Origin: Actinobacteria bacterium UBA7524
GTDB lineage: Bacteria; Actinomycetota; Coriobacteriia; Anaerosomatales; UBA912
Direction of reading: 5' to 3'
Assembly (NCBI GenBank): GCA_002478275.1
Contig: DLMY01000031.1
Coordinates: 124,001-149,919 of the forward strand
DNA: 25,919 nucleotides
The notes under the pieces were generated by a model. It saw nothing but the letters and a program-made list of their open reading frames with translations. It did not search any database and was not told where the DNA came from. A program made the translations under genes and the position numbers. Below, one piece after another: positions 2,108 to 20,207 of the stretch; position 1 is the first letter of the stretch; every line of letters starts with the position of its first letter.

Positions 2108-2316
2108 CTCCCTCAGATGCCCCCGGCACTCCGCGTCTCACCGTTTCCGACGTCCGTCACCATGCCGAGGAGGTCCGCAACCTGGCCCTCGACAAGGTGC
2201 GTGCGCTTGCCGCCGAGGAGAGCACCAAAGCGGCGGTAGTCGGCGTTGTGGTCGTGATTGGACTGATGTCGGCCGCATACTACTTCGGGTCCCGTGCCGC
2301 GCGCCGGCGGCCCTGA
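2104..2316 (+). CDS. Small tail-anchored membrane protein
   Basis: ATGA overlap with the upstream gene. C-terminal TM segment (AAVVGVVVVIGLMSAAYYFG) followed by a basic tail. Confidence 0.65.
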   Translation: MTPSDAPGTPRLTVSDVRHHAEEVRNLALDKVRALAAEESTKAAVVGVVVVIGLMSAAYYFGSRAARRRP

Positions 2317-2743: not shown

Positions 2744-2774
2744 TGCTTGCGATCGCAGGAAGACCGCTTGTCCG

Positions 2775-5263: not shown

Positions 5264-5940
5264 TGGACGCGGCTCTCAGCAGGAAGCCTCTGGCGCTGAT
5301 CGTGGCGGCACTGCTGCTTGTGACATTGCTGTCGGGCCAAGTGATCGCTGATACGCTCGCCCCTACTGGTGAGGCCGAGGATACCGGACGTACCATCGGC
5401 CGGGCGGGCTTTGCGTATCTCACCGGGATCCGAACGTATGCAGCGGCTGTGCTGTGGAACCGGCTCGATCCGTTGATGCATGAGTTCTATGACGGAACCA
5501 CCCTTGACGAGCAGGTCTACATGCTGCCCTCGATCCGGGCGATCATTGCGCTCGATCCCCAGTTCGACCAGTCCTACTATGTCGCCTCCTGGATCCTTGC
5601 GCGTAGGGGAGCGGTTGAAGAGGGGATCGAATTGGCTCGGCAGGGGGTCGAGAACAATCCTCGCTCGGGATTGCTTCTCGTGAACAACGCCCAGGTGCTG
5701 TTCCTGTTCGGTGATGACACTGACGAGGCCGTTCGACTTGTCGTGGAGGCGACCGAGCCGGACATCTTCTGGCGCAACATACTCGAAAAGCATGATTCGT
5801 TCGCAATCGTCGAGTCGATACTTGAGGTCACAGGTGATGTGGAGGGCGCGGCCAGGGTGGGCGAGGAGATCGCTCGAATCGATGCCGAGATCGACGAACT
5901 CGGACTCGAGGTCGAGCACGACCACAGTCACGAGCACTGA
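5263..5940 (+). CDS. Membrane-anchored TPR-like protein (PilG/XapA-like) with His-rich tail
   Basis: TGATG overlap start at 5263. N-terminal TM, IIALDPQF..SY and GIELARQGVENNP helical repeats, C-terminal HDHSHEH. Confidence 0.7.
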   Translation: MDAALSRKPLALIVAALLLVTLLSGQVIADTLAPTGEAEDTGRTIGRAGFAYLTGIRTYAAAVLWNRLDPLMHEFYDGTTLDEQVYMLPSIRAIIALDPQFDQSYYVASWILARRGAVEEGIELARQGVENNPRSGLLLVNNAQVLFLFGDDTDEAVRLVVEATEPDIFWRNILEKHDSFAIVESILEVTGDVEGAARVGEEIARIDAEIDELGLEVEHDHSHEH

Positions 5941-6073
5941 TTTGTCAGGACAGGAGTCGGGTTCTCAAGACCGGGTTCGTTCTCGTTCCGCGCGCGGCTC
6001 CAGGAGCCGTTGCCGCCGTGGCTGGCCGTGGCTTTCACGCAATCAAGGGGACGTAGAATCCGGTTGATTTGTC

Positions 6074-6103
6074 TTGACTGGTGGTGGATTCGTTGAGTAG
6101 ACT
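6074..6103 (+). promoter_or_regulatory. Putative sigma70 promoter of the biosynthetic operon
   Basis: TTGACT (6074-6079), 18-nt spacer, TAGACT (6098-6103). Confidence 0.55.
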
Positions 6104-6300
6104 GCGTTCGTTGTGCGCACAGAGGGCGCGCAGGTGGGGGAATGTATCAACAGAGGGGGGTTCGTGCGCGCTTTGTCTCGGCGGCCTTTGTGCCGTCGTT
6201 CCGGTTGCCGTGTCGGCACTATCCGTCCGTCATTCGAACTCGTTTGGCTTGACCGAGAGTCCTCTTGGTCGCTGGGCGTCCCCCCAATCGCGGGCGTTCG

Positions 6301-7287
6301 ATGACTGGGCGCGCGGCGATTCTTGCCACAGGGATGTATGTTCCAGACGAAATTGTGACCAACGATCATCTGGCTTCGTTCGTCCCAGGGGTGACCAGCG
6401 AAGGAATCGAACGCATCTGCGGCATCAGGGAACGTCGGCGCAGTTCTGAGGACGAGGCAGCGTCTGATCTTGCGGCTCACGCGGCCACAGACGCGCTAGA
6501 GAATGTCGGCATGACGATCGCCGATATGGACTTCCTGATCGTCGGAACTGCGACTCCGGACAGGGTCACACCGCCAACAGCCAGCCTCTTGTTAGGCAAG
6601 CTGGGGGGCGAAGGGATCCCATCGTTCGACGTGAACTCTGGTGGTTGTGCGAACTCCGTGTTCGCTTTGATCGTCGCCTCGGGGCTATTGAAACACAGGG
6701 GAGCCATCGGCCTCGTAGTCGCGGTTGAGAACTTCAAGGGGCGTATAGACTATTCGACGAGAGACACCTGTCCCTATTTCGGGGACGGTGCAGCTGCGTT
6801 TGTAGTGGGCTATGCGGACGACGGGAGTGGCATCGTCGCTCATCGCTGGCACACGTACGCTGATCAAGCTGGAACCATAACGGTTCCGGGCGGTGGTTCG
6901 GAGACCCCCGTTTCGTCGGAGATGATCGAAAACGGTCTGCAGTATCTGAAACTCGACGGTCGGGGGGTTTGGGATTTCGCGTCTCGGGCGTTTCCGGAGG
7001 CCGTCCGCGCACTGCTGGATGACACGGGTACAGATATCGGCAACATTGACCTGGTGGTGCCTCATCAGGCCAATCGTAGGCTAATAGAGTACGGTGTTCA
7101 GGAACTTGGCCTAGGGCTGGACCGGGTCGCGGTGAACGTCGAGAGATACGGGAATACCGGCGGGGCGTCTGTGGGCATCGCCTTGCACGAAGCGGTGCAG
7201 TCGGGCCGACTGCGGCGAGGTGACTTGGTCGTGTTGTGCGGGTTCGGGGCTGGCTTGGCCGTAGGCACCGTGCTGGTGCGGTGGTGA
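6301..7287 (+). CDS. fabH: Beta-ketoacyl synthase III (FabH-like), canonical Cys-His-Asn triad
   Basis: GIRERR, DVNSGGCA (Cys), FGDGAAA, VPHQAN (His), YGNTGGAS (Asn), GFGAGL. ATG 6301 preferred over TTG 6265 because the FabH fold starts there. Confidence 0.9.
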   Translation: MTGRAAILATGMYVPDEIVTNDHLASFVPGVTSEGIERICGIRERRRSSEDEAASDLAAHAATDALENVGMTIADMDFLIVGTATPDRVTPPTASLLLGKLGGEGIPSFDVNSGGCANSVFALIVASGLLKHRGAIGLVVAVENFKGRIDYSTRDTCPYFGDGAAAFVVGYADDGSGIVAHRWHTYADQAGTITVPGGGSETPVSSEMIENGLQYLKLDGRGVWDFASRAFPEAVRALLDDTGTDIGNIDLVVPHQANRRLIEYGVQELGLGLDRVAVNVERYGNTGGASVGIALHEAVQSGRLRRGDLVVLCGFGAGLAVGTVLVRW

Positions 7288-7291
7288 GGCA

Positions 7292-8440
7292 GTGATTCCT
7301 GAACAGGCCCTGAACGCCAAGAGGGTTCACATATCGGCTTGTGATAGATATGAGTCTGGTCACACGGACGAGCTGACCAGAAGACTGGTCCTTGATTCAG
7401 GGCTTGCAGACATGGTGACTCCCGGCATGGCGGTTCTTGTGAAGCCGAATCTCGTTGGGCCCTATAGGCCTGATCGTGCTGCCACCACCCATCCTCTGGT
7501 GCTCGAAGGAGTCCTTTGCGTGCTCAGGGAACTAGGTGCACGTGTGACGGTGGGCGAGTCCAGCATGACGAAGACGCGCAAGGCGCTGGAGGTGACAGGA
7601 ACCAGGGAAGTGGCGTTGCGTTACGGTGCTCAGGTGCTCGATTTCGATGTTAGTGAATACGTTGAGATTCAGAGCGGTCTGTCATACGTGCCCAGAATCC
7701 CGATCGCGAAGGCTGTCATCGACGCTGACCTTGTTATCAGTGTTGCCAAACTCAAGACACACTATGCGAACGCATTCAGTGGCGCTGTCAAGAATTGCTT
7801 CGGGGTTGTGCCAGGCAGGATGAAACTGCAGACGCACGGGTTGAGTCGTACGAAGGCGCGGTTTGAACAGGCGCTCGTGAGGATCTGGCAGCTAACCTCG
7901 CCGGCCTTGTCGGTGATCGATGGCGTCATCGGTATGGAGGGTAACGGCCCGACGAATGGACGACCAAAGCATGCGGGAGTCCTTGTGGCGGGCAGAAATG
8001 CCGCTTCGGTCGATATGGTCGCCGCAGACCTCGTGGGCGTTCCAGTTGCAGACATCACTTACCTGACGGCTGCGGTCAGGGGGGGACTCGCACCGCGTTT
8101 TGAGGACTTGGAGGTCGTTGGTGCGCCGGAGACGGTACGTTTTGCTCGACCGTCGTATGTGATGCGCAGGATGGACGCAGTGATCGAGTCGTACACCCCG
8201 TGGATCTACGAGAAGCTTCTGAAACCTCGCGTCCTGATCGGAGAATCGTGCAGGTCTTGTGGAGTCTGTGTCGAGGCATGCCCTGAGGGTGCGCTGCGAT
8301 CTAGGCAGGATATGGCGCCGGTTCTAGATGATGCGGCCTGCATCACCTGCCTGTGTTGCCAAGAGGCTTGTCCGAGTGACGCGATCAGCGCGCGCAATCG
8401 GCTCGGCGACAGAAGATTCGTACGAGGGGGACCGAGATGA
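7292..8440 (+). CDS. DUF362 domain protein with C-terminal 2x[4Fe-4S] ferredoxin
   Basis: VLVKPNL, TTHP, AKLKTH, GAVKNCFG, DGVIGMEGNGP motifs; CRSCGVCVEACP and CITCLCCQEACP. Confidence 0.88.
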   Translation: MIPEQALNAKRVHISACDRYESGHTDELTRRLVLDSGLADMVTPGMAVLVKPNLVGPYRPDRAATTHPLVLEGVLCVLRELGARVTVGESSMTKTRKALEVTGTREVALRYGAQVLDFDVSEYVEIQSGLSYVPRIPIAKAVIDADLVISVAKLKTHYANAFSGAVKNCFGVVPGRMKLQTHGLSRTKARFEQALVRIWQLTSPALSVIDGVIGMEGNGPTNGRPKHAGVLVAGRNAASVDMVAADLVGVPVADITYLTAAVRGGLAPRFEDLEVVGAPETVRFARPSYVMRRMDAVIESYTPWIYEKLLKPRVLIGESCRSCGVCVEACPEGALRSRQDMAPVLDDAACITCLCCQEACPSDAISARNRLGDRRFVRGGPR

Positions 8441-9318
8441 GTCCAATCATGACCTCCTGCGCGGCACAGACAGCACGGGAACTCGTGCAAGCAGGCGAGA
8501 GTGCTCAGGCGTACTCTGACCTGGGAGTGATTGCTGCCCAGAGGGCTATCGCTGCCTCTGGATTGTCCCCAGACGATATCGGCGCCGTCATCTCCATCAC
8601 CGAGACATCGGACTACCTGGCCCCTCAGGCGGGTGCCTTGCTCGCCCACAGGCTCGGTCTGCGCTCGCAAATGGTCTTGAACCTTAACGATGGATTGGTC
8701 GGGTTCAACCAAGGCATAGCGGCCGCTGGAGTGCTGTTCACTCCGGAGGTAGAAGCGGTATTGCTTGTCACCGGAGAGGTGTTCAGCTCGATGGGTCTGG
8801 AGTCTCCGAGTGACGTCGTTGGCGCGTATGTAGTTCAGGCAGAATCGCAAGGCATGAGCATCGAGGCGCCGGAGTTCCGCTGCTTCGGCGATCTGGCTGA
8901 GGCTTACATGGTGAAGGTGGGCGGCTCTGCTCACAAACTCGACCACGACGCCTTGCAGAGGGGTGAGCATTGTCTCAGAAGGTACACGTCGACCCCCGAG
9001 ACCGTGAATGAGGTCCGATCTTCCGCAGTCGAGCTGGTTCGCGCACGCATAGCTAAGTACCACAGGGGAGAGCGGGTCGGCATCGTGGTGGCTGACGTCT
9101 TCTCGATGTTTGAATCCGGTGACACGGAAGATCCTTGGCAAGTGCTCTCATCGTCGGATGAGTGCGCCTGGCTCGACAAGGAAGCGTTCCTTGGCGGGGC
9201 GACATTGGCGGGAATCTTCGCAGGCCAACAGTGTGTGGAGTCGGCTGATGCGGTCATCGTACTTGAGATCGGACTGGGTGCTCAGGTCAGCTGTTCGTCG
9301 TTGAGGAGGGCGGTGTGA
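8437..9318 (+). CDS. Degenerate FabH/KAS III-fold protein, catalytic residues absent
   Basis: SDLGVIAAQRAIAASGLSPDDIGAVI..T.T.DY..P...LAHRLGL is FabH-like. The Cys site reads LNDGLVGF, and no HQAN or GN motif is present. Confidence 0.72.
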   Translation: MSPIMTSCAAQTARELVQAGESAQAYSDLGVIAAQRAIAASGLSPDDIGAVISITETSDYLAPQAGALLAHRLGLRSQMVLNLNDGLVGFNQGIAAAGVLFTPEVEAVLLVTGEVFSSMGLESPSDVVGAYVVQAESQGMSIEAPEFRCFGDLAEAYMVKVGGSAHKLDHDALQRGEHCLRRYTSTPETVNEVRSSAVELVRARIAKYHRGERVGIVVADVFSMFESGDTEDPWQVLSSSDECAWLDKEAFLGGATLAGIFAGQQCVESADAVIVLEIGLGAQVSCSSLRRAV

Positions 9319-10343
9319 TGGCAGATGGATTCGCTGGGATTCTGGGCACAGGCTGCTACCTGCCTCCTCGTAAGGTAGAAGTGGAGCAAGTGAAGGAACT
9401 GAAGGGGCTCGACCCGCATGTAGCTGGACGGATGGGAACTCGCGCGGTGCACGTCGCTGATTTCGATGACCAACCCAGCATCATGGCTGTCAAGGCGGCG
9501 AGAGCCGCCCTGGAAGATGCGCGGATGAGCCCCACAGATGTAGATCTCATCATTTACTCGTCGGGCTTTCTGCCCGACCATCTCTTCTGGGCAGACTACG
9601 CATTCATTCAGCATGAGCTAGGTGCCGATTTTGCCACCGCTTTCAAGATCGACCAAGGCTGCAACGGGGCGCTGATGTCCCTCGAGGTCGCCCGTTCCTT
9701 CATCGAGAGAGGGGTCTTCAAGACGGTGCTCATCGTATCGTCTGAACGTTGGGAAGAACCGCATATCGACAGGTGGACGGCTTCCCCCTTCTGCTATTAC
9801 AGCGACGGAGCTGGAGCACTGGTGCTCGGCGACGGTGCACCTGGCCGGATCATGGCTACCAGCTTCTTCACTGCCGGTACATACCACCGGACTTCATTCA
9901 TCATGGCTGGCGGCACACGACAGCCTCTCGACCCACTGTTACTGGAGTTAGGCTGGGGACGTTTTGACGGGCAGGTAGCCAGTAGATTCGCGTGGAATGA
10001 CTTCGCCGACAAGCGCGCGTTCCGCAAGTACTTTCTCCAGCAAACGGCTGAACGGCTCAGGCACTCGCTTGAGATCGCAGGCTTGACCCTTGAGGATCTT
10101 GACCTGGTGGTGGGGCAGAATGTCTCCAATATGCTTCTGCGTCTTGTCTGGCACAAGATCGGTATCGAGGAATGCAGGACGACCATGCATATGGCCGAGG
10201 ACGTTGGCCATTTCGGTAGTTCAGACGTCATCATCAATCTGCACAAGGCAAGGACTGACGGCCTGGTTCAAGATGGAAGCATCGTGGGGCTTGTGAGTGC
10301 AGGGACTGGCTACTCTTGGGGTGGGGCGGTGGTGCAGCTGTGA
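9315..10343 (+). CDS. KAS III-family protein, atypical Cys/His-Asp type (start 9315 GTG or 9318 ATG)
   Basis: GAGGAGG RBS. GILGTGCYLP, DQGCNG (Cys), SDGAGA, VVGQNVS where PHQAN is expected, GHFGSSD, SAGTGYSWG. Confidence 0.85.
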   Translation: MMADGFAGILGTGCYLPPRKVEVEQVKELKGLDPHVAGRMGTRAVHVADFDDQPSIMAVKAARAALEDARMSPTDVDLIIYSSGFLPDHLFWADYAFIQHELGADFATAFKIDQGCNGALMSLEVARSFIERGVFKTVLIVSSERWEEPHIDRWTASPFCYYSDGAGALVLGDGAPGRIMATSFFTAGTYHRTSFIMAGGTRQPLDPLLLELGWGRFDGQVASRFAWNDFADKRAFRKYFLQQTAERLRHSLEIAGLTLEDLDLVVGQNVSNMLLRLVWHKIGIEECRTTMHMAEDVGHFGSSDVIINLHKARTDGLVQDGSIVGLVSAGTGYSWGGAVVQL

Positions 10344-11359
10344 GAGTACGTCCACGCGCCGCTATTCGGGGGCTTGGCCATGCGTTGCCTCAGAGGACAG
10401 TGACCAACGAAGAACTCCACGAGCTTCACGGGTTCAATTCTCGCTACATACGGATGGTCTTCGGCGTTCAGGAGAGGGTCTTTCTGGGCGAGGGGGAGCG
10501 TTTCTCTGACCTTGCGGTGACCGCGGGGCGTCGCGCTCTGGAGAACGCAGGCGTTCTCGCCGACGACATCGACTTGCTCATTACCTCATGCTGCTCGTCA
10601 GACAACCTGTTGCCCAAGGCGGGAACTGTGGTCCAGCGGGCGCTGGGTTTGAGTCGGGCACAGGTGGTGAACATCAACGCAGCGTGTAGTGGTCCGAACT
10701 TCGGAATGGGACTGGCGTGGCGCTACATCGCCAATGGGCGATGCACACGGGTGCTCGTAGTCATGGGTGACACACTGAGCGTTTCCAGTTCGGAGGATGA
10801 CATCATGCGGGCGGCTTTCTCGGACGCCGCGAGCGCAGCGGTAGTCGAGGCTGTCTTGGATCCAGAGGTGGGATTCATGGCAGACTCCTACGGATGTGAC
10901 GGAACCCTGCATGAGGCGATGGTTCTCCGTTCCCCAGGGTCGCGGTTCCCTATGAACGAACAGAGATTCTCAGAGGAGTACCACCGAACGTTGAACCAAC
11001 CGGAACTGATGAGCGACGTGATGCCGCTTACGGCGAAGTGGTGCCGGGACTGCTGGGATGATTGCCTGGCGAAGGCCGAATGGACTTCCGCGGATGTGGA
11101 TTTCGTATCACCACATCCTGTTTCGTTGATCCAGATGCGCGCACAGATGGAGGCTCTAGGTCTTGGGATGGACAGGACCCTGATCGTGACAGACGAACTC
11201 GGACACAGCGGTAGCGGGACATCGTTCATCGTGCTGGAACGCGCCGTTGAGCAAGGAATCATCGATGCAGGAAGCCGAGTGTACTGTTTCACGGTTGGCT
11301 CAGGGTTCATATGGGGAGGAATGCTCATGACGTGGAGTCCCGCCGAGGCGTTTTCATGA
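10340..11359 (+). CDS. KAS III-family protein, Cys-His-His type
   Basis: GTGA overlap start. GVQER, NAACSG (Cys), FSDAASA, SPHPV (His), LGHSGS (His in place of Asn), GSGFIWG. Confidence 0.87.
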   Translation: MRVRPRAAIRGLGHALPQRTVTNEELHELHGFNSRYIRMVFGVQERVFLGEGERFSDLAVTAGRRALENAGVLADDIDLLITSCCSSDNLLPKAGTVVQRALGLSRAQVVNINAACSGPNFGMGLAWRYIANGRCTRVLVVMGDTLSVSSSEDDIMRAAFSDAASAAVVEAVLDPEVGFMADSYGCDGTLHEAMVLRSPGSRFPMNEQRFSEEYHRTLNQPELMSDVMPLTAKWCRDCWDDCLAKAEWTSADVDFVSPHPVSLIQMRAQMEALGLGMDRTLIVTDELGHSGSGTSFIVLERAVEQGIIDAGSRVYCFTVGSGFIWGGMLMTWSPAEAFS

Positions 11360-11805
11360 TCTTGGACAAGAGGTCGAAGAACAGCGAGGGCCTCCTTGAT
11401 TCGGACTTGCTGCGAGAGACGCTGATGGGCGCTTGTGAGGCGCTCATGAGCGATGATGATGGTAGAAATAGAGTCCCCGAAGCCCCATTGACGATCTTCC
11501 ATGTGCTGGCTGACCCGGATCTCGAATTCACGCTTCACGCTGCGGAGCGGAATCTCCGGGTGTCGTTTGAGAGGCCGGTAGATCCTGACGTGATCCTGAG
11601 TATGACCGCACACGTCTTCCACGAGATTCAGATGGGCCGACTGAACCCGGTAGAAGCTGGCGTAAGGGGCAAGATGGAGGTCATCGAAGGCGATGCGATG
11701 AGACTGCTTGCTTTGCAGAACATACCCATCAGCGCATTCTACGCTCGCACAGCGCGGACGGTCGGACTGGAACCCGCCACGACGGTCGAAAGCGAGAAGC
11801 GATGA
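11356..11805 (+). CDS. SCP2 sterol/lipid-binding domain protein
   Basis: ATGA overlap start. PDVILSMTAHVFHEIQMGRLNPVEAGVRGKMEVIEGD fits the SCP2 pattern. Confidence 0.75.
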   Translation: MILDKRSKNSEGLLDSDLLRETLMGACEALMSDDDGRNRVPEAPLTIFHVLADPDLEFTLHAAERNLRVSFERPVDPDVILSMTAHVFHEIQMGRLNPVEAGVRGKMEVIEGDAMRLLALQNIPISAFYARTARTVGLEPATTVESEKR

Positions 11806-12482
11806 GTTCTGGTGTCTTGATGCGACTGACAGAAGTGATCAAGACATACGGAGACGGAGTGAAGGTTCCGGCGCTCCGTGGGATCACCCTGGACATCATG
11901 GAGGGCGAGTTTCTCGTATTACTCGGACATAGCGGGTCGGGCAAGAGCACCTTGCTCAACATCGTGGGTGGTGTCGATGGTGCGACATCGGGCCAGGTGC
12001 TGTTCCGGGGAAGCGACCTGGTTTCCGCGTCCGGACGAGAATTGCGACGTTACAGGCGAGAGCATGTTGGTTACGTGTTCCAGTTCTACAACCTGATCGC
12101 ATCCTTGACCGCTCGGGAGAACATACTGTTGGCTGCTGAGATGGTCGGGTCACCCGCGTCCGTGGATGAGTTGATTACCGCCGTGGGACTCGACGAGAAG
12201 GCCAACCGTTTTCCCAGCCATCTATCAGGAGGCGAGCAGCAGCGTGTAGCAATCGCTCGAGCCGTGGTGAAGAGTCCCGATTTGTTGTTGTGTGACGAGC
12301 CTACCGGTGCGCTCGACAGCGGAACCGGAGACAGGGTGATTCAACTCATTCGCGAGCTGAATCTCCAGAGGGGAACGGCTGTCGTAATGGCCACGCACAA
12401 CAGGGATATCGCCACTGTCGCCGACCGTGTCGTTGAGTTAAGAGACGGTCGCATTGTGAATACGTCGGGGCAACCTGCGTGA
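11802..12482 (+). CDS. ABC transporter ATP-binding protein (LolD/MacB type)
   Basis: [46 protein letters not shown]. Confidence 0.93.
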
Positions 12483-14833
12483 CATGGCTACTGATCAGGC
12501 GTCTGCTTCGGGCGTCATGGCGGGTTCGCGGGCAGGTCTTCGTGGCTGTTGCCGTGGTCATGCTCGGCGTCAGCGCTCTCGTGGCCCTTGGCGGCTCATA
12601 TCGCCAATTGGCTGCTTCGAGAGATGCGTTCTACGCTCGCTACCGCATCGCGGACATCACGGTCAACACTCTTGTGGGCTCTCATGACGCCAGGGATCTG
12701 GCGAACGGGATACCCGGCGTGGAGCGGACAGCAGCACGTCTTGTGCTGCCCCTTTCTGCCAACGTGGGTGAAGCTCGCCTGATGCTTGAGGTTAGGACTT
12801 TCGAACCTGAAGCTGACTCGCTCAACGCTCTGCATCTGTATGAAGGGTCGGGTTTGCTGGAATCCGGCATCTACGTCGAACGCAACTTCGCGCGCCATCA
12901 TGGCCTGGAAGTTGGCGATTCAGTGGAGTTGCTGCCGGACAGCGAGGTTGTTCGGCTGACTGTCAGCGGCATCGTGGGTAGCCCGGACGTGGTCTACACG
13001 ATGCGGACCATACAGGACATCGCTCCGCCATTGGATGGATTCGGAGTCGCCTACGTTGGGGAGGCCACGGCGCGCCGGATAGCGGGAGAGCTGCCCGAGG
13101 GTGCTTCGGCTCGAAGCGTCTTGGTTGGGCCGGAGTACAACCAGATTCTTCTTGCAGTGGACAACGGTGTTCGGGTGTCAGAGGTTGCAGAGGACGCCGA
13201 GGAACACTTGTCGAGTCTTCGACCGACGAGAGTGATCAAGAACAGGGATTTGCTGAGCGACATCGTGCTTCGGAACAACATAGACCAGATCGGCGCGGTT
13301 GCAGCGGTTTTTCCGATGATGTTCGTGGTCGTCGCACTGATGCTCATATACGTACTGATTGCACGACTGGTCGAAGCCCAACGTCGCGAGCTCGGAGTTC
13401 TTCTTGCGCTGGGGGTTGGGCACGCGCCGCTGATGCTGTCGTTCATGGCGATACCGGTGTTGATCGGAGGCCTTGGTGCAGTGGCTGGCGTGCTCCTGGG
13501 TGAAAGGCTCGCGACCCTCGCGGTATCGTTCTATGCCTCGTACTTCAACATGCCGGTCATGGGCGGTGTCCAGTCTGTCGGCACACCGTGGCTGGCAATC
13601 ATGTTGATTCTGGTGACGTGCCTGTTCGCCGGCGCTTTGCCGGTCCGGCACATGCTCGCCGTTCAGGTGCCTATCGATTTGCTCAGGCCGCATACCCCCA
13701 CGGCATCCAAGGAGACCGACACGCTTGGCGGCGTGGTACGACGTCTCCCAGTGCGGTGGCGTATCAGTGCGAGATCTCTGCTGCGCAATCATCGTCGCTC
13801 ACGACCGGTGGTATTGGGCTCCGTCGCGAGCATAGTCCTGATCGTCTGCTCAGTCTTCATTCTCGACGGGATGGACTATCTGATGCGAGCGCATTTCAGC
13901 GAGTTCAACCGCCAAGACGTGACAGTTGTCTTCACCGAGATGCAGGAAATTGGCGCAGGACTGCTGTCGGATGAACCTCATGTCGCGCGTGCGGAACCGA
14001 TCTTGGAGCTACCAGTCCGCGTGACTTCGACTCAAGGGTCGCAGACAGTCGTAGGGACAGGGGTATCACCAGGTGCGCACCTGCTCGACCTTGGTGATCG
14101 GCTCCCTGGTCCGGGCGAGGTGATCGTCTCGGAACGCTTGGCGGAGGAACTCTTCCTGACTCCTGGTGATTGGGTCACCGTGGATGTCGCGGGAAACACC
14201 TCGGAGTTTCGTGTGGTAGCCAGGGTCACGCAGCTGGTCGGAACGGGGGCGTACTTCCCGATCGAGTCGTTATCGGAGTTGGCGGACATACCGCCGTCCG
14301 CTACGAAGGCTCTCCTGGAAACCTCCGGTGCGGATATTGCCAGTCTACGCACTTCGCTGATGACGAATCCGGCAATCGGTACCGTGGAGCTGAGGGAAGA
14401 ACAGCGCGATCTCTTCAGGAATACGTACATGGGTGCACTGTACGTGTTCGTGGGGATGGCGGCCTTCTTCGCGTTCACCATGGGCTTCCTCGTTGTGTTC
14501 GGAACGACGTCGATCGACTTAATCGAACGGGCGGCTGACTTCGTGATCCTCAAGACGATCGGGTATTCCGCTGGCGAGATCGCAAGGCAGATGACCATTG
14601 AGAATCTTGTGCTCAGCGTTGAGTCGATGCTGATGGGGATGCCGCTAGCGGTGCTGATGGCCTGGCAGCTTTCGGGGGTGTTCGGTACAGACATCCTGTC
14701 GATGCCTTTCGTCATCTATCCACGGACGATGGTGATAGCCGCTGGTGCCTCTGTGGCGTTCACGGTGCTCGCACAAGCTCGCAACGGCTGGGAGATCGAG
14801 CAGCAAGGGATGACCGGGCAGTTGGCTGAGTGA
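12479..14833 (+). CDS. FtsX/MacB-like ABC permease (duplicated, 784 aa)
   Basis: Two repeats of one TM, a large extracellular domain and three TM; QRRELGVLLALG and ERAADFVILKTIG coupling motifs. Confidence 0.88.
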   Translation: MTWLLIRRLLRASWRVRGQVFVAVAVVMLGVSALVALGGSYRQLAASRDAFYARYRIADITVNTLVGSHDARDLANGIPGVERTAARLVLPLSANVGEARLMLEVRTFEPEADSLNALHLYEGSGLLESGIYVERNFARHHGLEVGDSVELLPDSEVVRLTVSGIVGSPDVVYTMRTIQDIAPPLDGFGVAYVGEATARRIAGELPEGASARSVLVGPEYNQILLAVDNGVRVSEVAEDAEEHLSSLRPTRVIKNRDLLSDIVLRNNIDQIGAVAAVFPMMFVVVALMLIYVLIARLVEAQRRELGVLLALGVGHAPLMLSFMAIPVLIGGLGAVAGVLLGERLATLAVSFYASYFNMPVMGGVQSVGTPWLAIMLILVTCLFAGALPVRHMLAVQVPIDLLRPHTPTASKETDTLGGVVRRLPVRWRISARSLLRNHRRSRPVVLGSVASIVLIVCSVFILDGMDYLMRAHFSEFNRQDVTVVFTEMQEIGAGLLSDEPHVARAEPILELPVRVTSTQGSQTVVGTGVSPGAHLLDLGDRLPGPGEVIVSERLAEELFLTPGDWVTVDVAGNTSEFRVVARVTQLVGTGAYFPIESLSELADIPPSATKALLETSGADIASLRTSLMTNPAIGTVELREEQRDLFRNTYMGALYVFVGMAAFFAFTMGFLVVFGTTSIDLIERAADFVILKTIGYSAGEIARQMTIENLVLSVESMLMGMPLAVLMAWQLSGVFGTDILSMPFVIYPRTMVIAAGASVAFTVLAQARNGWEIEQQGMTGQLAE

Positions 14834-14869
14834 TTGTCGCCTAGGACAGTGAGGAAGGGGAGTACGCAG

Positions 14870-16219
14870 ATGCGCGTTCTGTTAGTTTCGCCACGTGGGG
14901 AGAACGATTACCACGATACGGGTGCATTCGAGAAGGTGGCCAAGGATGTTCTTTTCGCCCCCCTCGGACTGCAGTTGCTTGCTGCGATGACACCCTCAGA
15001 GTACGAAGTCGATATCATCGACGAGAACATCGGCCAGTGCATACCAGGGGGTGTTCATTACGACTTGGTGGGTATCACGACGATGACGCCTCAGACACCG
15101 CGCGCATATCGGATTGCAGATGAACTTAGGGTGAGGGGTATCAAGGTTGTGATGGGGGGTTATCACGTCTCCCTATTGCCTGAGGAAGCCCTCGAACACT
15201 GTGATTCCGTGTGTATCGGTGAAGCGGACTTGCTTTGGCCCCGAATAGTCGAGGACGCACGAGCGGGAAGGCTTCAGTCGACATATCAGGCGGACCAGCT
15301 GGTTGATCTTGCGGAGTTGCCGCGACCGAGGCGTGACCTGTCGCCTAAGAAGTACCGGGCGCAGAACATGGTGCAGACATCGCGCGGCTGCCCATTCAAC
15401 TGCGACTTCTGCAGCGTCGTCAAGTTCTTCGGCCATCGGTACAGGTTCCGTCCCGTCCAAGACGTGATCGAAGAGATCGCCGACCTGAAATCGCAGGGCG
15501 AGCTCAAGGACAACATGGTCTTTTTCGTTGACGACAACATCGTCGGCAACAAGAGGCGAGCTAAGGAGCTCTTCCAGGCATTGATCCCTCTGAAGGTGCG
15601 CTGGATCAGCCAGTGCTCATTAGACATAGCCGACGATGAGGAATTGCTCGATTTGGCGAAGCGCAGCGGTTGTCTGTCATTGCTGATCGGCTTTGAGTCG
15701 GTTGCAGTGGAGTCCCTTGTCGAGATGAACAAGAAGAATGTCAAGCGGCTCAGTTACGAACTGAACATCGCGAAGATTCGGCAAGCGGGGATACTGATCT
15801 TCGGTTTGTTCATCTTCGGTTTTGACAGCGATCCTGATAGCGTCTACGAGGACACGCTGCGGTTCATTGAGCGCAACGGCATAGCCTGTGCAACGTACTC
15901 CGTCCTGACCCCATTTCCCGGAACTGCTTTCTTCGACCGATTCGAGGCCGAAGGGCGCCTTCTGCACAAGAATTGGGCGTACTACGATGTCGCCCACACC
16001 GTTTTCAGTCCTCTCAACGGAACACCCGAGGACTTGCAGCGTGCGTTTTATGACACCGCTCAGCGGACCTACGCATGGGGCTCGATGCTCAAGCGCATCA
16101 TGAAGACGGGCCGGTACGCTCCACTTGCGCTGGCAACCAGTCTCGGAGTCAAGAAGATGTACCGCGAGCTGCCATCCAGGGTATGGCGTGCTCCGAAAGC
16201 GGAAATGCACGAGGCATGA
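14870..16219 (+). CDS. Cobalamin-binding radical SAM protein
   Basis: Purine-rich RBS before ATG 14870. PLGL..LAA, VVMGGYH and IGEAD (B12-binding domain); SRGCPFNCDFC; FVDDN; IGFES; TPFPGT. Confidence 0.92.
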   Translation: MRVLLVSPRGENDYHDTGAFEKVAKDVLFAPLGLQLLAAMTPSEYEVDIIDENIGQCIPGGVHYDLVGITTMTPQTPRAYRIADELRVRGIKVVMGGYHVSLLPEEALEHCDSVCIGEADLLWPRIVEDARAGRLQSTYQADQLVDLAELPRPRRDLSPKKYRAQNMVQTSRGCPFNCDFCSVVKFFGHRYRFRPVQDVIEEIADLKSQGELKDNMVFFVDDNIVGNKRRAKELFQALIPLKVRWISQCSLDIADDEELLDLAKRSGCLSLLIGFESVAVESLVEMNKKNVKRLSYELNIAKIRQAGILIFGLFIFGFDSDPDSVYEDTLRFIERNGIACATYSVLTPFPGTAFFDRFEAEGRLLHKNWAYYDVAHTVFSPLNGTPEDLQRAFYDTAQRTYAWGSMLKRIMKTGRYAPLALATSLGVKKMYRELPSRVWRAPKAEMHEA

Positions 16220-18048
16220 AGACCTCAGTAGATGGAGCTGCAGCCAGGGTCAGTTCCGCGAGGCTGCTTTCTGGAAACGCGGCGGTCGCCGCCGGAGCAT
16301 GGGCTGCAGGGGTGGCCGTCGTGACGGGTTATCCTGGTGCGCCCTGTACCGAGGTACACGAATCTCTCCGTGCACTCTCGCGCACGGAATCAGACCTTTC
16401 CGTTTCCTGGTCAGTGAATGAGAAGGTAGCGCTTGAGATTGCGATTGGGGCGAGTCTGGCAGGTGCGCGCTCGCTCAGCGTGATGAAGACCCTGGGCCTC
16501 AATGTGGCGGCTGACGCCTTCACGCAGATGACGGGTACGCGTCTCGCTGCTGGGTTGGTGCTGGTCGTTGCCGATGATGTCGGTAGGGTTCTTGGAGATG
16601 ATGATCAAGACTGTCGCGAATACGCAGCCATGACGGGGGCGCCTGTTCTTGAGCCGGCCAATCCGAGTGAATGCGTGGCATTCACGATGGAAGCCTTCGA
16701 GATCAGCGAAGCATTCTCGACCCCCGTGATCGTCAGACTGACGTCCGTCACCTGTCGTACGTCCTCCCCCGTGGAGATTCCAGCGGCACGAATTCCGCGC
16801 AGAGTGCCAGAAGTCGGGTTCTCCGGTACACGTACGATAACCAATCTGGTGCGTCACGGTCTTGTCGGACTCGATAGGGACGTTGTGTCCCAGCTGGTTT
16901 TCGATGAGGAGACCATGCTCGGAAGCCTCCAGGAGCTCGTTAACGCTTCAGCCTACAATGTGGCTGAGCCTGGACAGGGCCGCGTGGGGCTGATAGCCAC
17001 AGGAATTGCTGCCAGCTATGCAAGAGAAGCGTTCCCCGATCTGCCTATGCTTAAGCTTGGGATATCCTGGCCTCTTCCGATCCGAAAAGCCAGGGAGTTC
17101 TCGAAAGGGCTGGATGCGGTCGTCGTTCTTGAGGACGGGCATCCGGTGGTTGAACGTGGGCTGCGTGCTGCGAACCTTGACGTGCGAGGACGGGACCTCG
17201 TTGAGAGGCACCCTGCTCATCCGTGTCTGTCTCCTGAGGTGATCAGAGATGCTCTCGTCAAGGCGTTTGCAGACCTTGAGGGCAGCACGCCGTTGTTGCA
17301 GTCTCCAGGCACCCCGTTGCCTGCTACGGCCCCTAGGCTCACCTCGAATTGCTCAGGGTGTCCTCACCTGTTCGTTTTTCGCGTCTTGCGCGAACTGGAG
17401 GTCGCTGTTGCCGCAGGCATAGGCTGCTGTGCGATTGGATCCAGCCCGCACGTGGGGGTGGTGGACATCCTGAAATGCATGGGCGCGCCACCAGGTGTCG
17501 CAGCTGGCTGGCAGCTGGCTGGCGGACGCCCCATCGTCGCCCTGATAGGTGATGGCGAGTTCTGGCATACGGGCATCATGGGATTGATCGATGCCGTGGC
17601 CACCGAGAACCCTATCACGATGATCATCGTGGAGAACGAGGTGGTTGCGATGACCGGCGGTCAACCGCACCCGTCGAGTCCGGCAAGGCGGGGGGGCACA
17701 AGGCTCTCGATTGCCGGAATCGTTGCCGCCCTCGGGGTCGATGACGTCAAGGTCGTTGACACATACGATCTGGCTGCCTTGAGAATCGCGGTTGCAGACG
17801 CTGTTGCTGAGCCGCGTCTCTCCGTTGTGGTCGCGCGGACCCCTTGCCCAACGCGCTTGAAGGGATTGAACAACGAAAGGGCCGCACTGGATGCGGATGC
17901 CTGCTCACAGTGCAGAGATTGCCTCACTCTTGGCTGCCCGTCGATCACCGTTCGAGAAGGTAGACCCTCTCTTGTCGGCGAGTCCTGTGTCGGGTGCGGA
18001 CTGTGTGTGGTGACGTGTCCGTCAGGGGCGATAGGGTGGTGCAGATGA
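16216..18048 (+). CDS. iorA: Indolepyruvate:ferredoxin oxidoreductase alpha subunit-like (ThDP, FeS), divergent
   Basis: ATGA overlap. LSGNAAVA, GYPGAP, SVNEKVALE, GLNVAAD, CSGCPH, IGC, CMG, GDG..N ThDP motif, AMTGGQPHP, and a C-terminal ferredoxin (CSQCRDC...CP, CVGCGLC...CP). Confidence 0.88.
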   Translation: MKTSVDGAAARVSSARLLSGNAAVAAGAWAAGVAVVTGYPGAPCTEVHESLRALSRTESDLSVSWSVNEKVALEIAIGASLAGARSLSVMKTLGLNVAADAFTQMTGTRLAAGLVLVVADDVGRVLGDDDQDCREYAAMTGAPVLEPANPSECVAFTMEAFEISEAFSTPVIVRLTSVTCRTSSPVEIPAARIPRRVPEVGFSGTRTITNLVRHGLVGLDRDVVSQLVFDEETMLGSLQELVNASAYNVAEPGQGRVGLIATGIAASYAREAFPDLPMLKLGISWPLPIRKAREFSKGLDAVVVLEDGHPVVERGLRAANLDVRGRDLVERHPAHPCLSPEVIRDALVKAFADLEGSTPLLQSPGTPLPATAPRLTSNCSGCPHLFVFRVLRELEVAVAAGIGCCAIGSSPHVGVVDILKCMGAPPGVAAGWQLAGGRPIVALIGDGEFWHTGIMGLIDAVATENPITMIIVENEVVAMTGGQPHPSSPARRGGTRLSIAGIVAALGVDDVKVVDTYDLAALRIAVADAVAEPRLSVVVARTPCPTRLKGLNNERAALDADACSQCRDCLTLGCPSITVREGRPSLVGESCVGCGLCVVTCPSGAIGWCR

Positions 18049-18638
18049 GGGCCGATTTCGATCTCGTGGTGTGCGGTCTGGGCGGCCAGGGTATCCTTAC
18101 GTGCGCTAACGCAGTAGCGCATGCAGCGGCACTCGAAGGATCTGATGTCTTGGCTACCGAACTCGTTGGTTTGGGACAGAGGGGCGGCTCTGTGACAGCG
18201 CATGTTCGGGTAGCTGAACGTGTCGTGTCGCCACGAATCCCGGCCGGTCAGGCCGATGTGATGCTTGCGCTCGATCGTTTCGAGGCGGCGCGAAATGCGC
18301 ATAGTGTGTCACCGGAAGGTCTGATGTTGGTGATGTCGTACGAATTGACACCGAACAGCGTTGCGCTCGGACTGAGCGATGAGTCAGAGCCAGATGCGGG
18401 GCTCGCGATTGACACGTTGCGGGCCGCCGGAATGAGAATCATCGAACTTCCCTACACACCCGAGGTCGGACGAATGAACGTGTATGCGTTGGGAGCCCTC
18501 TCCGTTGCACTTCCCTTCAACGAGGGGTGTTGGTCGGCAGTCCTTGGCAATCTGCCTCATTCGCAGGGGGGTGCTGAGAGCCCGCTCAGTGCTTTCGAAT
18601 CAGGACGGGCCGACGCTGTAGCACGGATAGATGATTGA
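18045..18638 (+). CDS. iorB: Indolepyruvate:ferredoxin oxidoreductase beta subunit-like
   Basis: ATGA overlap. VCGLGGQG, GLGQRGGSVTAHVR, SPRIPAGQAD, N..ALGA, AFESG. Confidence 0.87.
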   Translation: MRADFDLVVCGLGGQGILTCANAVAHAAALEGSDVLATELVGLGQRGGSVTAHVRVAERVVSPRIPAGQADVMLALDRFEAARNAHSVSPEGLMLVMSYELTPNSVALGLSDESEPDAGLAIDTLRAAGMRIIELPYTPEVGRMNVYALGALSVALPFNEGCWSAVLGNLPHSQGGAESPLSAFESGRADAVARIDD

Positions 18639-18664
18639 CCTTCTTCCCTCGCGGGGTGTACGCT
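18635..18664 (+). promoter_or_regulatory. Putative sigma70 promoter for the T-box leader
   Basis: TTGACC (18635-18640, overlapping the iorB stop), 18-nt spacer, TACGCT (18659-18664). Confidence 0.55.
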
Positions 18665-18670
18665 TCCGCC

Positions 18671-18918
18671 TAACCTTCGTACCAGCATGAAGGCGAATAT
18701 CGGAGCACAAGAGACGTGAGGGAAGAGAGCATCATCCGCTCAGCCACCCCTCCCATGTCTTTCGCCAGGGCGGTGCGCACGCGCAGCCGGAAGCGGATCG
18801 GCGCCGGACCGGTATCCCGGCACAAAGAGGTCTGCACGAGCCAGTTGGTCGTGTGGACGAAGATAGGTGGTACCGCGACCGACCCCTCGCCCTATCGGCG
18901 GAAGGGGTCGTTTTGTTT
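18671..18918 (+). ncRNA. T-box riboswitch (transcriptional attenuator)
   Basis: T-box AGATAGGTGGTACCGCG (18861-18877). Antiterminator TAGG/CCTA and GCG/CGC around the TGGTACC bulge. Stem III GTCTGCACGA 18830-18839/TCGTGTGGAC 18849-18858. Stem IIA/B-like GCCGG/CCGGC. Overlapping terminator downstream. Confidence 0.85.
18880..18918 (+). terminator. Intrinsic terminator of the T-box leader
   Basis: CGACCCCT-CGCC...GGCG-GA-AGGGGTCG hairpin followed by TTTTGTTT. Confidence 0.85.
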
Positions 18919-18938
18919 CCTCGGCGGGAGATGATGAG

Positions 18939-20207
18939 ATGGGTACCGCAAGAGTGGTGTTCGACAAGTGGGAAGGGCGCTACGCGCAGCGCATGGATGA
19001 CGTGCGATCGAGCGCGGTGCGCGACCTGTTCGGGGCGGCGAGCCGTCCGGACGTGATCAGTCTGTCGGGCGGGATGCCCGAGGTCAGCCGCGTGCCGACG
19101 CATACTGTTGCCGACGTGGCGCATTGGGCGGTCGCACACAAGGGCGCTGTCGCGCTTCAGTACGGAAGCAGCGAGGGGAGGCGCGAGCTGCGCGATGTCA
19201 TCGTAGAGCTGATGGCGGAGACGGGCGTGCGTCTGAAGGCCGACGAGGTCGTGGTGACCGCCGGTGCGCAGCAGGCACTCGACCTGATAGCGAAGATCTT
19301 CCTCGACCCCGGGGACGTGGTGATCGCCGAGGGGCCGACGTACCTGGGTGCGCTGCAGGCGTTCTCGGCGTACCAGCCCGACGTGCGCTGCATCCCGATG
19401 GACGACGACGGCATGCGCATGGACCTGCTCGAAGCCGAGCTTGAGCGACTCGGGCCGCGTGGTGCGAAGTTCATCTACACCATTCCGAACTTCCAGAACC
19501 CTGCGGGAGTGACGCTTTCGGCCGAGCGCAGGCGGCGGTTACTCGAGCTGTCGCGCGAGTACGACATCCCGGTGGTCGAGGACGACCCTTACGGGCGCCT
19601 TCGCTTCGAGGGCGGGCACATCAAGCCGCTTCGGGCGCTGGATCCCGAGGTCATCTACCTGGGTACCTTCTCGAAGGTCTTCGCGCCGGGACTTCGACTG
19701 GGCTGGATCACCGCGCCCAAGCCGGTGCTTGCGAAGTTCATCCTGGCCAAGCAGGCGGCGGACCTGTGCGGCAGCGCGTTCGCCCAGGTCACGGCGGAGC
19801 GGTACTTCGCGGCTACTCGCTGGCGCCGTGTGCTGCAAAGCCTCACGAAGACCTACGGCGAGCGACGCGATGCGATGCTCTCCGCGCTCGAGGAGCACTT
19901 CCCGCCCGAGGCGCGCTGGACCCATCCGGAGGGCGGGTTCTTCGTCTGGGTGGAGCTGCCGTCATTCCTCGACACCGGCGCGATGCTCGCCGAGGCGGTC
20001 GAGTGCGGAGTCACGTACGTGCCGGGCGACTCGTTCTACCCTGACGGCCGCGGACGCAACTGTATGCGCCTGGCCTTCTGCTACGCTGAGCCCGAGCGGA
20101 TCGAAGAAGGTATACGCAGGCTCGCCGAGGCGCTCGATGACCGTCTTCACCTGTACCGCGCATTCATCGCCGCAGGGGCCATACCTGCCGAGGAGGGAGC
20201 AGCATGA
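18939..20207 (+). CDS. PLP-dependent aminotransferase class I/II (LysN/ARO8/MocR-like catalytic family)
   Basis: GGGAG RBS. ISLSGGMP, LQYGSSEG, GAQQALDL, PNFQNPAG, EDDPY, GTFSKVFAPGLRLG (PLP Lys), PEGGFF. Confidence 0.93.
   Translation: MGTARVVFDKWEGRYAQRMDDVRSSAVRDLFGAASRPDVISLSGGMPEVSRVPTHTVADVAHWAVAHKGAVALQYGSSEGRRELRDVIVELMAETGVRLKADEVVVTAGAQQALDLIAKIFLDPGDVVIAEGPTYLGALQAFSAYQPDVRCIPMDDDGMRMDLLEAELERLGPRGAKFIYTIPNFQNPAGVTLSAERRRRLLELSREYDIPVVEDDPYGRLRFEGGHIKPLRALDPEVIYLGTFSKVFAPGLRLGWITAPKPVLAKFILAKQAADLCGSAFAQVTAERYFAATRWRRVLQSLTKTYGERRDAMLSALEEHFPPEARWTHPEGGFFVWVELPSFLDTGAMLAEAVECGVTYVPGDSFYPDGRGRNCMRLAFCYAEPERIEEGIRRLAEALDDRLHLYRAFIAAGAIPAEEGAA

Follow-up and report, generated by a model that had tools for sequence, protein, structure and literature searches.

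The stretch of DNA analyzed here, hereafter the window, comprises 25,919 nucleotides (nt) of the assembly of Actinobacteria bacterium UBA7524 (NCBI GenBank GCA_002478275.1, contig DLMY01000031.1, positions 124,001 to 149,919 of the forward strand), a member of the Anaerosomatales within the Coriobacteriia. Its main locus is an operon of eleven genes, apparently of foreign origin and almost without relatives in public data (Table 1). The operon encodes four proteins assigned to the ketoacyl-acyl carrier protein synthase III (KAS III) fold, an enzyme of the indolepyruvate:ferredoxin oxidoreductase (IOR) type (IorAB), a radical S-adenosylmethionine (SAM) enzyme, a DUF362 iron-sulfur protein, a small SCP2-type protein and the two parts of a predicted ABC exporter. 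We class it as a probable biosynthetic operon that is centred on KAS III proteins, contains no megasynthase and has a set of enzymes without precedent.

Gene identities were taken from the list of open reading frames (ORFs) together with Pfam and NCBIfam profile searches, and start codons within the operon were picked from the gene overlaps and from the positions at which the family profiles begin to align. A preliminary description of the same DNA had counted ten co-directional genes. Their placement and their location on the plus strand stand; the number is eleven, the description having miscounted its own list. It had also reported that most of the genes are joined by ATGA or GTGA overlaps, and such 4-nt overlaps are indeed found at eight of the ten junctions, the remaining two being gaps of 4 and 36 nt. 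The overlaps, together with the shared composition at third codon positions described below, put the grouping of these genes far beyond chance adjacency.

Table 1. Genes of the operon and features of its borders (positions are those of the window; aa, amino acids).
Feature	Position	Strand	Description
kas1	6301-7287	+	canonical FabH-type KAS III by alignment, 328 aa
duf362	7292-8440	+	DUF362 with C-terminal 2x[4Fe-4S] ferredoxin domain, 382 aa
kasX	8437-9318	+	degenerate, N-terminally shortened KAS III-fold protein by model, 293 aa
kas3	9315-10343	+	KAS III-like, predicted member of the DpsC/CerJ/ChlB3 clade, 342 aa
kas4	10340-11359	+	KAS III with aligned Cys-His-His, 339 aa
scp2	11356-11805	+	small SCP2-fold protein, 149 aa
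abcA	11802-12482	+	ABC ATPase, MacB/LolD/DevA type, 226 aa
abcP	12479-14833	+	tandem-duplicated FtsX/MacB-type permease, 784 aa
rsam	14870-16219	+	radical SAM enzyme with N-terminal B12-binding domain, 449 aa
iorA	16216-18048	+	IOR-type alpha subunit, 610 aa
iorB	18045-18638	+	IOR-type beta subunit, 197 aa
Upstream control region	5938-6103	+	hairpin, direct repeat and sigma-70-like site
27-nt direct repeat (TGATTTGTC...)	5938-5964 and 6065-6091		74% identity, 127 nt apart
Terminator-like hairpin of the preceding gene	5958-5979	+	consensus scan
Sigma-70-like site TTGACT-18-TAGACT	6074-6103	+	within the 360-nt gap before kas1
Terminator-like hairpin	18880-18920	+	8-bp perfect stem, 15-nt loop, then TTTTGTTT; between iorB and the aminotransferase gene

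The operon holds no gene for an acyl carrier protein (ACP), a FabD-type acyltransferase, a ketoreductase, a dehydratase or a CoA (adenylating) ligase, as the preliminary description had said, and none of 123 extra frames gave a Pfam match at E<=1e-3. The frames, each running from stop to stop and no shorter than 55 aa, came from both strands of positions 5900-18900. The full list held 125 of them, and the two omitted, the upstream gene and the aminotransferase, were each scanned against Pfam separately. The window carries no tRNA gene, and no Rfam family reaches its gathering score anywhere in it.

Base composition sets the operon apart from its surroundings. The GC content drops from 0.64-0.68 in the flanks to 0.55-0.61 inside the cluster, and at third codon positions (GC3) it is 0.58-0.69 across all eleven cluster genes compared with 0.71-0.885 across the fifteen flanking genes measured. 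The lower GC3 of the cluster genes suggests a horizontally acquired island. We looked for direct repeats flanking the island and for an integrase beside it and found neither, the sole find being one 11-mer inverted match, and we claim no integration signature.

The four KAS III-fold proteins share a pairwise identity of just 25-28%, which marks them as old paralogs. They had been described as a four-paralog KAS III set. The fold is assigned to all four, whereas their functional equivalence does not hold up: by their four distinct active-site sets they are four different kinds and not one equivalent set.

By alignment, Kas1 is a canonical Cys-His-Asn FabH. It matches the Pfam families ACP_syn_III_C (104 bits) and ACP_syn_III (49.8 bits), passes the NCBIfam FabH subfamily model NF006829 (280.1 bits, cutoff 249) and stays below the stricter TIGR00747 (250.5 bits, cutoff 292.1). 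Its best match in the Protein Data Bank (PDB) is the FabH structure 4ryb (E 2.5e-58), with which the Cys, HQAN and GNT motifs align, giving the triad Cys116, His255 and Asn285. Kas1 also carries an arginine, Arg260, at His+5, which we take to be the equivalent of the ACP-docking Arg249 of E. coli FabH. Since Kas1 is an ordinary FabH that keeps this arginine, the absence of an ACP gene from the cluster does not amount to ACP independence, and Kas1 may use the ACP of the host.

Kas4 is, judged by its aligned residues, a KAS III enzyme with an unusual Cys-His-His set (Cys116, His259 and His289), in which GHSGSG replaces the GNT motif. Its PDB matches include the FabH 8vd9 (3.4e-34), PqsD (4.8e-33) and PqsC (1.2e-9), and its identity to pqsD is 30.4%. 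It ends in a conserved E-x-F tail. Both this tail and the Cys-His-His set recur in the only two subfamily relatives found (P0174, 47% identity, and P0131, 34%).

Kas3 belongs, as predicted from its closest structures, to the acyltransferases of the DpsC/CerJ/ChlB3 clade. Among its 69 PDB matches DpsC takes ranks 1-3 (5.2e-30), CerJ rank 7 (1e-26) and ChlB3 rank 12 (8.2e-21). Cys116 is retained, and the segment GHFGSSD, which contributes His299 and Asp304, aligns to GHLGGGD of DpsC. According to PMC9573744, the acyltransferases CerJ and ChlB3 use a Cys-His-Asp set for catalysis. At the position of the first histidine of condensing KAS III enzymes, which is a histidine in the aligned DpsC, Kas3 has Gln268, and because of this replacement we infer acyl transfer instead of Claisen condensation.

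The fourth protein, KasX, has no significant Pfam match, and among NCBIfam models those of FabH cover its N-terminal half only (48.6 bits). We assign it the KAS III fold because its AlphaFold model matches KAS III structures along its whole length. The model (pLDDT 82.9, pTM 0.85) was built from a 48-row alignment of mostly FabH relatives, which favours this fold. About 294 columns of it align with KAS III structures, the best match being PqsD 3h77 (E 1.9e-16, TMq 0.77), and all 39 top chains shown by the fold search are KAS III-fold proteins. As modelled, then, KasX is a KAS III-fold protein; its active site is degenerate. Leu87 stands in place of the catalytic cysteine (NDGLVGFNQ) and the His and Asn motifs are gone, so KasX is probably a non-catalytic partner subunit. 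PqsB is not among its 44 PDB sequence matches at E<=0.01.

The partner of KasX was approached by complex prediction with Kas3. The pair reached an ipSAE of 0.91 in three of three runs, compared with 0.00 for the best of three controls, with a partner pLDDT of at least 86 and at least 91% agreement of contacts between runs. Among solved complexes 116 of 157 attain the mark used here, as do 2 of 215 mismatched pairs; these counts apply only roughly, since our own alignments were used. KAS III dimers have been solved, the PqsBC heterodimer among them, and the score may reflect memory of these structures. What the prediction shows is that the modelled KasX keeps a KAS III-type dimer face; it does not favour Kas3 over Kas4 as the partner. 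In sequence KasX is closest to Kas4 among the paralogs of the cluster (27% over 197 aa, E 1.5e-13, vs E 0.06 for Kas3).

IorAB has, as predicted from its domains, the two-subunit architecture of IOR, an alpha subunit and a beta subunit resembling POR gamma. IorA combines POR_N, a TPP-binding domain and a C-terminal ferredoxin domain with one CxxCxxCxxxC motif. It matches TIGR03336 (IOR_alpha) over profile positions 3-595 of 595 at 437.9 bits against a cutoff of 650.9, and its PDB matches are distant 2-oxoacid oxidoreductases only. IorB matches Pfam POR at 80.2 bits, and its best score against the NCBIfam IOR beta models (TIGR03334, PRK06853) is 128.2 bits with a cutoff of 237. The preliminary description named aryl-pyruvates as the substrates of IOR enzymes. 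The IOR architecture is confirmed; since both subunits miss the equivalog cutoffs, an aryl-pyruvate is a candidate substrate only.

The radical SAM enzyme matches Pfam Radical_SAM (53.4 bits, cutoff 29.5) and B12-binding (46.7 bits, cutoff 32.1) and carries the CxxxCxxC motif as CPFNCDFC at residue 174. All 22 of its NCBIfam matches are under cutoff: the best is HpnJ (110 of 577.6 bits), and among the others are PhpK (98.7 of 600), BchE (95.4 of 481), the ladderane-type TIGR04072 (83.5 of 360) and QCMT TIGR04014 (70.4 of 360). Its domains and motif agree with the B12 radical SAM enzyme of the preliminary description, while the methylation or cyclisation named there for such enzymes is not fixed, every named family being under cutoff. 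Among PDB entries it matches 9ccb best (2e-15) and then AprD4 (1.8e-12). The review PMC12931638 identifies 9ccb as the glutamine C-methyltransferase QCMT and describes AprD4 as a protein that does not bind cobalamin. With AprD4 as the second-best match, even the use of cobalamin by the window's enzyme is only putative.

Translated searches (tblastn) of plasmid sequences returned 40 records for the radical SAM enzyme, the nearest relatives being 36-38% identical. The closest (37.8% identity, 95% coverage) lies on a Clostridium sp. CF011 plasmid (NZ_CP086247.1, 13053-32276) in a YcaO/TOMM/SagB peptide cluster with an ABC transporter. A Citrobacter portucalensis IncF plasmid provides another locus (NZ_CP134684.1, 49732-68958), where five paralogous radical SAM genes stand beside genes for a fatty-acid desaturase, a PAP2 phosphatase, an N-acetyltransferase and a GH3-family protein. 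One of the five encodes a protein with 38% identity to the enzyme of the window, and the locus looks like an uncharacterised lipid-modification cluster.

The DUF362 protein matches Pfam DUF362 (PF04015) at 178.1 vs 24 bits as well as Fer4 families, and has CxxCxxCxxxC motifs at residues 320 and 350, corresponding to two [4Fe-4S] motifs. The cofactor motifs of the radical SAM enzyme, of the DUF362 protein and of IorA are thus all intact. The DUF362 protein falls below the Npun_F2552 equivalog (135.4 vs 500 bits), and its PDB sequence matches are confined to the ferredoxin part. A single-sequence AlphaFold model reached a pLDDT of 29.8 and a pTM of 0.17 and was left unused for fold searching. 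In the ESM Atlas the DUF362+Fer4 architecture is commonest in Bacillota and Thermodesulfobacteriota, and plasmid tblastn gave four matches at 26-32% identity, two of whose loci were inspected and carry no annotation. The literature found assigns DUF362 no function, and it held no paper on Npun_F2552. Pfam places DUF362 in clan CL0471 together with the LarA family (DUF2088), as stated in PMC11770544.

The small scp2 product matches Pfam SCP2 at 34.2 bits (cutoff 21.3) and no NCBIfam family, with weak PDB sequence matches to SCP2 chains (E 0.35-0.91); it is a putative binder of hydrophobic intermediates. Downstream, the ABC ATPase matches Pfam ABC_tran at 121 bits and, among NCBIfam models, LolD (201 bits), DevA (195 bits) and MacB (190 bits), all under their equivalog cutoffs. 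The permease matches FtsX (69.1 bits) and MacB_PCD (53.5 bits), each in two stretches. Its hydropathy profile gives about eight hydrophobic segments and two large loops, at about 39-275 and 463-655, and its sole PDB sequence match is MacB 5lil (E 0.0041). With FtsX domains, extracytoplasmic MacB_PCD stretches and a separate ABC ATPase, the two have the domain make-up of a MacB/FtsX (type VII) ABC exporter, neither part reaching a named equivalog cutoff.

By sequence comparison, KasX, Kas3 and Kas4 have no close relative among the billions of proteins searched. A word-index search of 5.8 billion clusters returned for KasX only itself and three weak FabH matches, and HMMER over 1.84 billion representatives gave 490 matches at E<=1e-3, of which just four, the query included, reached E<=1e-10. 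The N-D/G-G-L...N-Q motif of KasX is common only to two of these proteins (P0128 and P0129). For Kas3 the best non-self relative is 29-30% identical, and for Kas4 there is one match at 47% identity with the next at <=32%. The few relatives found (KasX-like P0128 and P0129, Kas4-like P0174 and P0131, Kas3-like P0012) are metagenomic. On plasmids, tblastn found one weak FabH match for KasX and, for Kas4, 76 generic FabH/PqsD matches at <=33% identity. Alignments of the KasX family and of the Kas4 subfamily were also run against 185,579 species-representative genomes, yielding 54 and 59 pattern matches respectively, none of them confirmed. Both scans are pattern-based and can miss divergent relatives, and the collection is evidently without the window's own contig. 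The preliminary description had not recognised the combination as a described pathway, and we concur, having found no matching paper and no close named match for the signature proteins in the collections searched; the literature searched for the gene combination, which held no relevant paper, excludes most subscription journals.

The borders of the operon carry candidate control elements. The preliminary description had put the genes behind one predicted promoter. A consensus match does exist, but this one sigma-70-like match in positions 5500-19500 is fewer than the 3.8 +/- 1.6 of shuffled sequences, so it is only the position before kas1 that commends it. The second copy of the 27-nt repeat overlaps the -35 hexamer of this promoter-like site, and for that reason the repeat may be an operator for some regulator; no regulator gene lies within the cluster. 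The leader (5850-6400) matches no Rfam family, with just two chance-level miRNA matches, and its fold has a z of -1.0; on these null results we claim no riboswitch. Terminator-like hairpins bracket the operon, one before and one after, the latter found separately, the consensus terminator scan having not reported it.

Among known systems the closest logic is that of the pqs pathway of Pseudomonas, in which several KAS III-fold proteins act on CoA thioesters, free of a carrier protein, and a dead partner subunit, PqsB, accompanies PqsC. The likeness lies in a canonical Cys-His-Asn enzyme (PqsD and Kas1) and in the pairing of an active with a degenerate KAS III protein (PqsC with PqsB, presumably Kas3 or Kas4 with KasX). 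The KasX model has its best structural match in PqsD, which also ranks third among the sequence matches of Kas4. The operon differs in having neither PqsA (anthranilate-CoA ligase) nor PqsE (thioesterase), so that its starter would come from IorAB, whereas pqs has no radical SAM, DUF362, SCP2 or exporter genes and its PqsB is no detectable relative of KasX.

The head-to-head condensing KAS III enzymes, namely OleA, the pyrone synthases CorB/MxnB, and DarB/StlD, resemble the cluster's enzymes in sharing the fold, in using acyl thioesters and in working without a megasynthase, and CorB, MxnB and OleA-type entries are found among the PDB matches of Kas1 and Kas4. These enzymes are Cys-His-Asn proteins, as opposed to the Cys-His-His of Kas4. 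The DarB model is matched at only 45.2 vs 550 bits and the StlD/DarB model at 51 vs 450, and the partners of the dialkylresorcinol and olefin pathways (DarA, DarC, OleB/C/D) are absent from the operon. A further parallel is the priming of FabH by unusual acyl-CoA starters that a 2-oxoacid dehydrogenase or oxidoreductase supplies. Here the likeness is the route from 2-oxo acid to acyl-CoA to FabH, with Kas1 over the FabH subfamily cutoff; the difference is that an IOR and a FabH stand in one acquired operon with three further KAS III-fold proteins, a radical SAM enzyme, a DUF362 protein, SCP2 and an exporter. Only tangential papers were found for a link between IOR and FabH priming.

Kas3, whose best solved relatives are DpsC, CerJ and ChlB3, has in Cys116, His299 and Asp304 the Cys-His-Asp set of CerJ and ChlB3 (PMC9573744). 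Its identity is however below 30%, Gln268 stands where DpsC has His, and those enzymes work in type II polyketide synthase or spirotetronate clusters with ACPs and sugars, none of which is present in the operon. The radical SAM enzyme has the N-terminal B12-binding domain and CxxxCxxC core of class B enzymes (QCMT, HpnJ, BchE, PhpK, HpnR), with the QCMT structure 9ccb nearest (PMC12931638); it differs from them in falling under the cutoff of all 22 matching NCBIfam families.

On balance we lean towards reading the locus as one horizontally acquired operon for an oxygen-sensitive pathway, independent of fatty-acid or polyketide megasynthases, that probably builds and exports a hydrophobic small molecule. 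The product would probably be a modified fatty-acyl, alkyl/aryl-ketide, pyrone-like or ester lipid. In the pathway that we propose, IorAB, assigned by its family, would oxidatively decarboxylate a 2-oxo acid, perhaps an aryl-pyruvate or a branched-chain one, to an acyl-CoA and reduce ferredoxin. Kas1, which has the triad and the FabH membership for it, would condense this acyl-CoA with a malonyl thioester, after which the starter would be elongated; the simplest source of the thioester would be malonyl-ACP borrowed from the fatty-acid synthase of the host. Kas4 could then form a second C-C bond in a non-canonical reaction like those of PqsBC, OleA or the pyrone synthases, with KasX as a structural partner for Kas4 or for Kas3. 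Kas3, to judge by its residues, would move an acyl group onto an O- or C-nucleophile, with no condensation.

Tailoring would fall to the DUF362 protein and the radical SAM enzyme: a reduction, together with a methylation or some other radical reaction at an unactivated carbon. These enzymes may draw on low-potential electrons from IOR. The exporter and SCP2 genes sit within the operon. SCP2 would hold greasy intermediates for the soluble enzymes, and the MacB/FtsX-type ABC system, going by its family, would expel the product from the membrane. A holding role like that of SCP2 here is played in ubiquinone synthesis by UbiJ and UbiT, which are also SCP2 proteins.

Several points weigh against the reading as a biosynthesis-and-export pathway. 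None of IorAB, the radical SAM enzyme, the DUF362 protein and the ABC parts reaches the curated cutoff of any named equivalog, so the substrates given for them are guesses. The radical SAM enzyme points to no single chemistry, because the two plasmid contexts of its relatives are unrelated to the cluster. Kas3 with KasX may have been the wrong pair to predict, since KasX is nearest to Kas4, and the promoter match is statistically not meaningful. Conserved co-occurrence in other genomes, whose absence the preliminary description had named as a refutation, emerged from neither of the two pattern-based scans of the 185,579 genomes. A membrane-lipid role without secretion, moreover, fits most of the same facts. 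In this main rival reading, a membrane-lipid remodelling module, IorAB and Kas1 would provide an unusual starter to prime the fatty-acid synthesis of the host. Acyl chains would be altered by the remaining KAS III proteins, the radical SAM enzyme and the DUF362 protein, for instance through methylation in mid-chain or the coupling of chains, and the lipid would reach the envelope by way of SCP2 and the ABC system. The module is consistent with Kas1 being an ordinary FabH in which the ACP-docking Arg position is kept, with the resemblance of the ATPase to the lipid and lipoprotein exporters LolD (201 bits) and DevA (195 bits), and with the plasmid relative of the radical SAM enzyme (38% identity) that lies beside a fatty-acid desaturase and a PAP2 phosphatase. 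The radical SAM enzyme itself weakly matches the lipid-acting HpnJ (110 bits) and HpnR (64.5 bits) and the 'lipid biosynthesis B12 rSAM' model TIGR04072 (83.5 bits), but these matches are far under cutoff. Since the cluster also looks rare and acquired, not a lineage-wide lipid trait, and holds no glycerol, phosphate or head-group enzymes, we regard this module as unlikely.

The plasmid relative that is closest to the radical SAM enzyme (37.8% identity, 95% coverage) sits in a YcaO/TOMM cluster with an ABC transporter, which could instead point to a lipidated or modified peptide akin to ribosomally synthesized and post-translationally modified peptides (RiPPs): the radical SAM enzyme would modify the peptide, Kas3 acylate it and the ABC system export it. 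Matches of the radical SAM enzyme to ApyD (84.4 bits) and of the ATPase to the darobactin exporter DarD (180.4 bits) lie in the same direction, both below cutoff. We rejected membership in a RiPP cluster and hold the peptide reading very unlikely, as there is no plausible precursor: no small ORF is credible, those in 5900-6320 and 18600-18950 being Arg-rich off-frame products, and none of the 123 alternative frames holds a Pfam domain. The cluster also has no protease, RRE, YcaO or lanthionine enzymes, and IorAB and three active KAS III enzymes would be left without a role. Very unlikely, too, is a catabolic function, in which IorAB would degrade aromatic or branched amino acids, the thiolase-fold proteins and SCP2 would thiolyse acyl-CoAs and the ABC system would serve a separate purpose. 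The best-known setting of IOR is amino-acid fermentation, and the thiolases of beta-oxidation come with SCP2 domains; both families are matched here. The KAS III proteins, though, match condensing and acyl-transfer enzymes, with thiolase models at just 18-28 bits, no acyl-CoA dehydrogenase, hydratase or phosphotransacylase/kinase is present, and the exporter is translationally coupled within the operon. That the acquired island is decaying or non-functional, with the odd residues Leu87, Gln268 and His289 marking loss of function, would accord with its atypical composition, the extreme rarity of relatives and the one clearly catalytically dead paralog, KasX. Set against this are eleven intact frames, preserved 4-nt coupling and intact cofactor motifs. 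The Leu-for-Cys of KasX and the Cys-His-His of Kas4 are each common to two distant relatives (25-47% identity), and their presence there implies selection. We consider decay extremely unlikely.

Pfam families found in the genes around the operon include UPF0182 and 'Actinobacterial Holin-X', which suggest an actinobacterial host. Between the holin-like gene and an ABC-2 transporter (3594-5263), the minus strand of 2138-3341 holds two ORFs of 223 and 188 aa with no family match, whose GC3 of 0.68 and 0.78 is compatible with coding, making them candidate genes. The gene that follows the transporter (5263-5940, plus strand) encodes a protein of about 225 aa with no family assignment. This protein has a hydrophobic segment at its N terminus and a tail that is acidic and rich in His (...EHDHSHEH), and it gives weak TPR-like matches (E 0.018-0.13); the GC3 of its gene, 0.726, lies between the flank and island values.

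Downstream, within 18939-21154 on the plus strand, lies a pyridoxal phosphate (PLP) aminotransferase gene. Its product matches only the aminotransferase part of regulators of the MocR/PdxR type (252.5 bits, profile positions 90-447 of 448), the DNA-binding part being unmatched, and MppQ at 213 bits. Its end overlaps the start of the D-Ala-D-Ala ligase gene (ddl) by 4 nt, an unusual pairing. We considered this aminotransferase (18939-20207) as a supplier of the 2-oxo acid and rejected it, given its GC3 of 0.835, the overlap with ddl and its place behind a terminator-like hairpin; it belongs to the native flank. Further on, the longest ORFs for a GNAT acetyltransferase (22608-23255) and a YbaK/tRNA-editing-domain protein (23150-23746), both on the plus strand, share 106 nt, read in different frames. 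Since the YbaK domain begins only at residue 69, the second protein probably starts later. The 5-formyltetrahydrofolate cyclo-ligase gene (24927-25511, minus strand, 142 bits) is among the few clear minus-strand genes of the window.

If the operon works as proposed, it would be a rare oxygen-sensitive route to lipid-like natural products without a megasynthase or a dedicated carrier protein, in which a 2-oxoacid:ferredoxin oxidoreductase has been recruited as the supplier of the starter unit. It would also offer a tractable setting for the function of DUF362 iron-sulfur proteins, which are widespread in anaerobes. The KasX (Leu-for-Cys) and Kas4 (Cys-His-His) subfamilies are nearly absent from public data, and their biochemistry would be new on the KAS III fold. 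A bolder version, which we put forward as a distinctly unlikely speculation, is a ferredoxin-coupled, megasynthase-free assembly line: IOR would give both the acyl-CoA starter and low-potential electrons, the four diverged KAS III-fold proteins, as a primer synthase, a Cys-His-His condensing enzyme, a Cys-His-Asp acyltransferase and a dead scaffold subunit, would build the skeleton on CoA or on a borrowed ACP, and the DUF362 protein would be a new kind of reductive tailoring enzyme beside the B12 radical SAM enzyme. Were this assembly line real, it would provide methylated aryl- or branched-alkyl lipids of a new class and the first biochemical role for DUF362, a relative of the nickel-pincer LarA fold.

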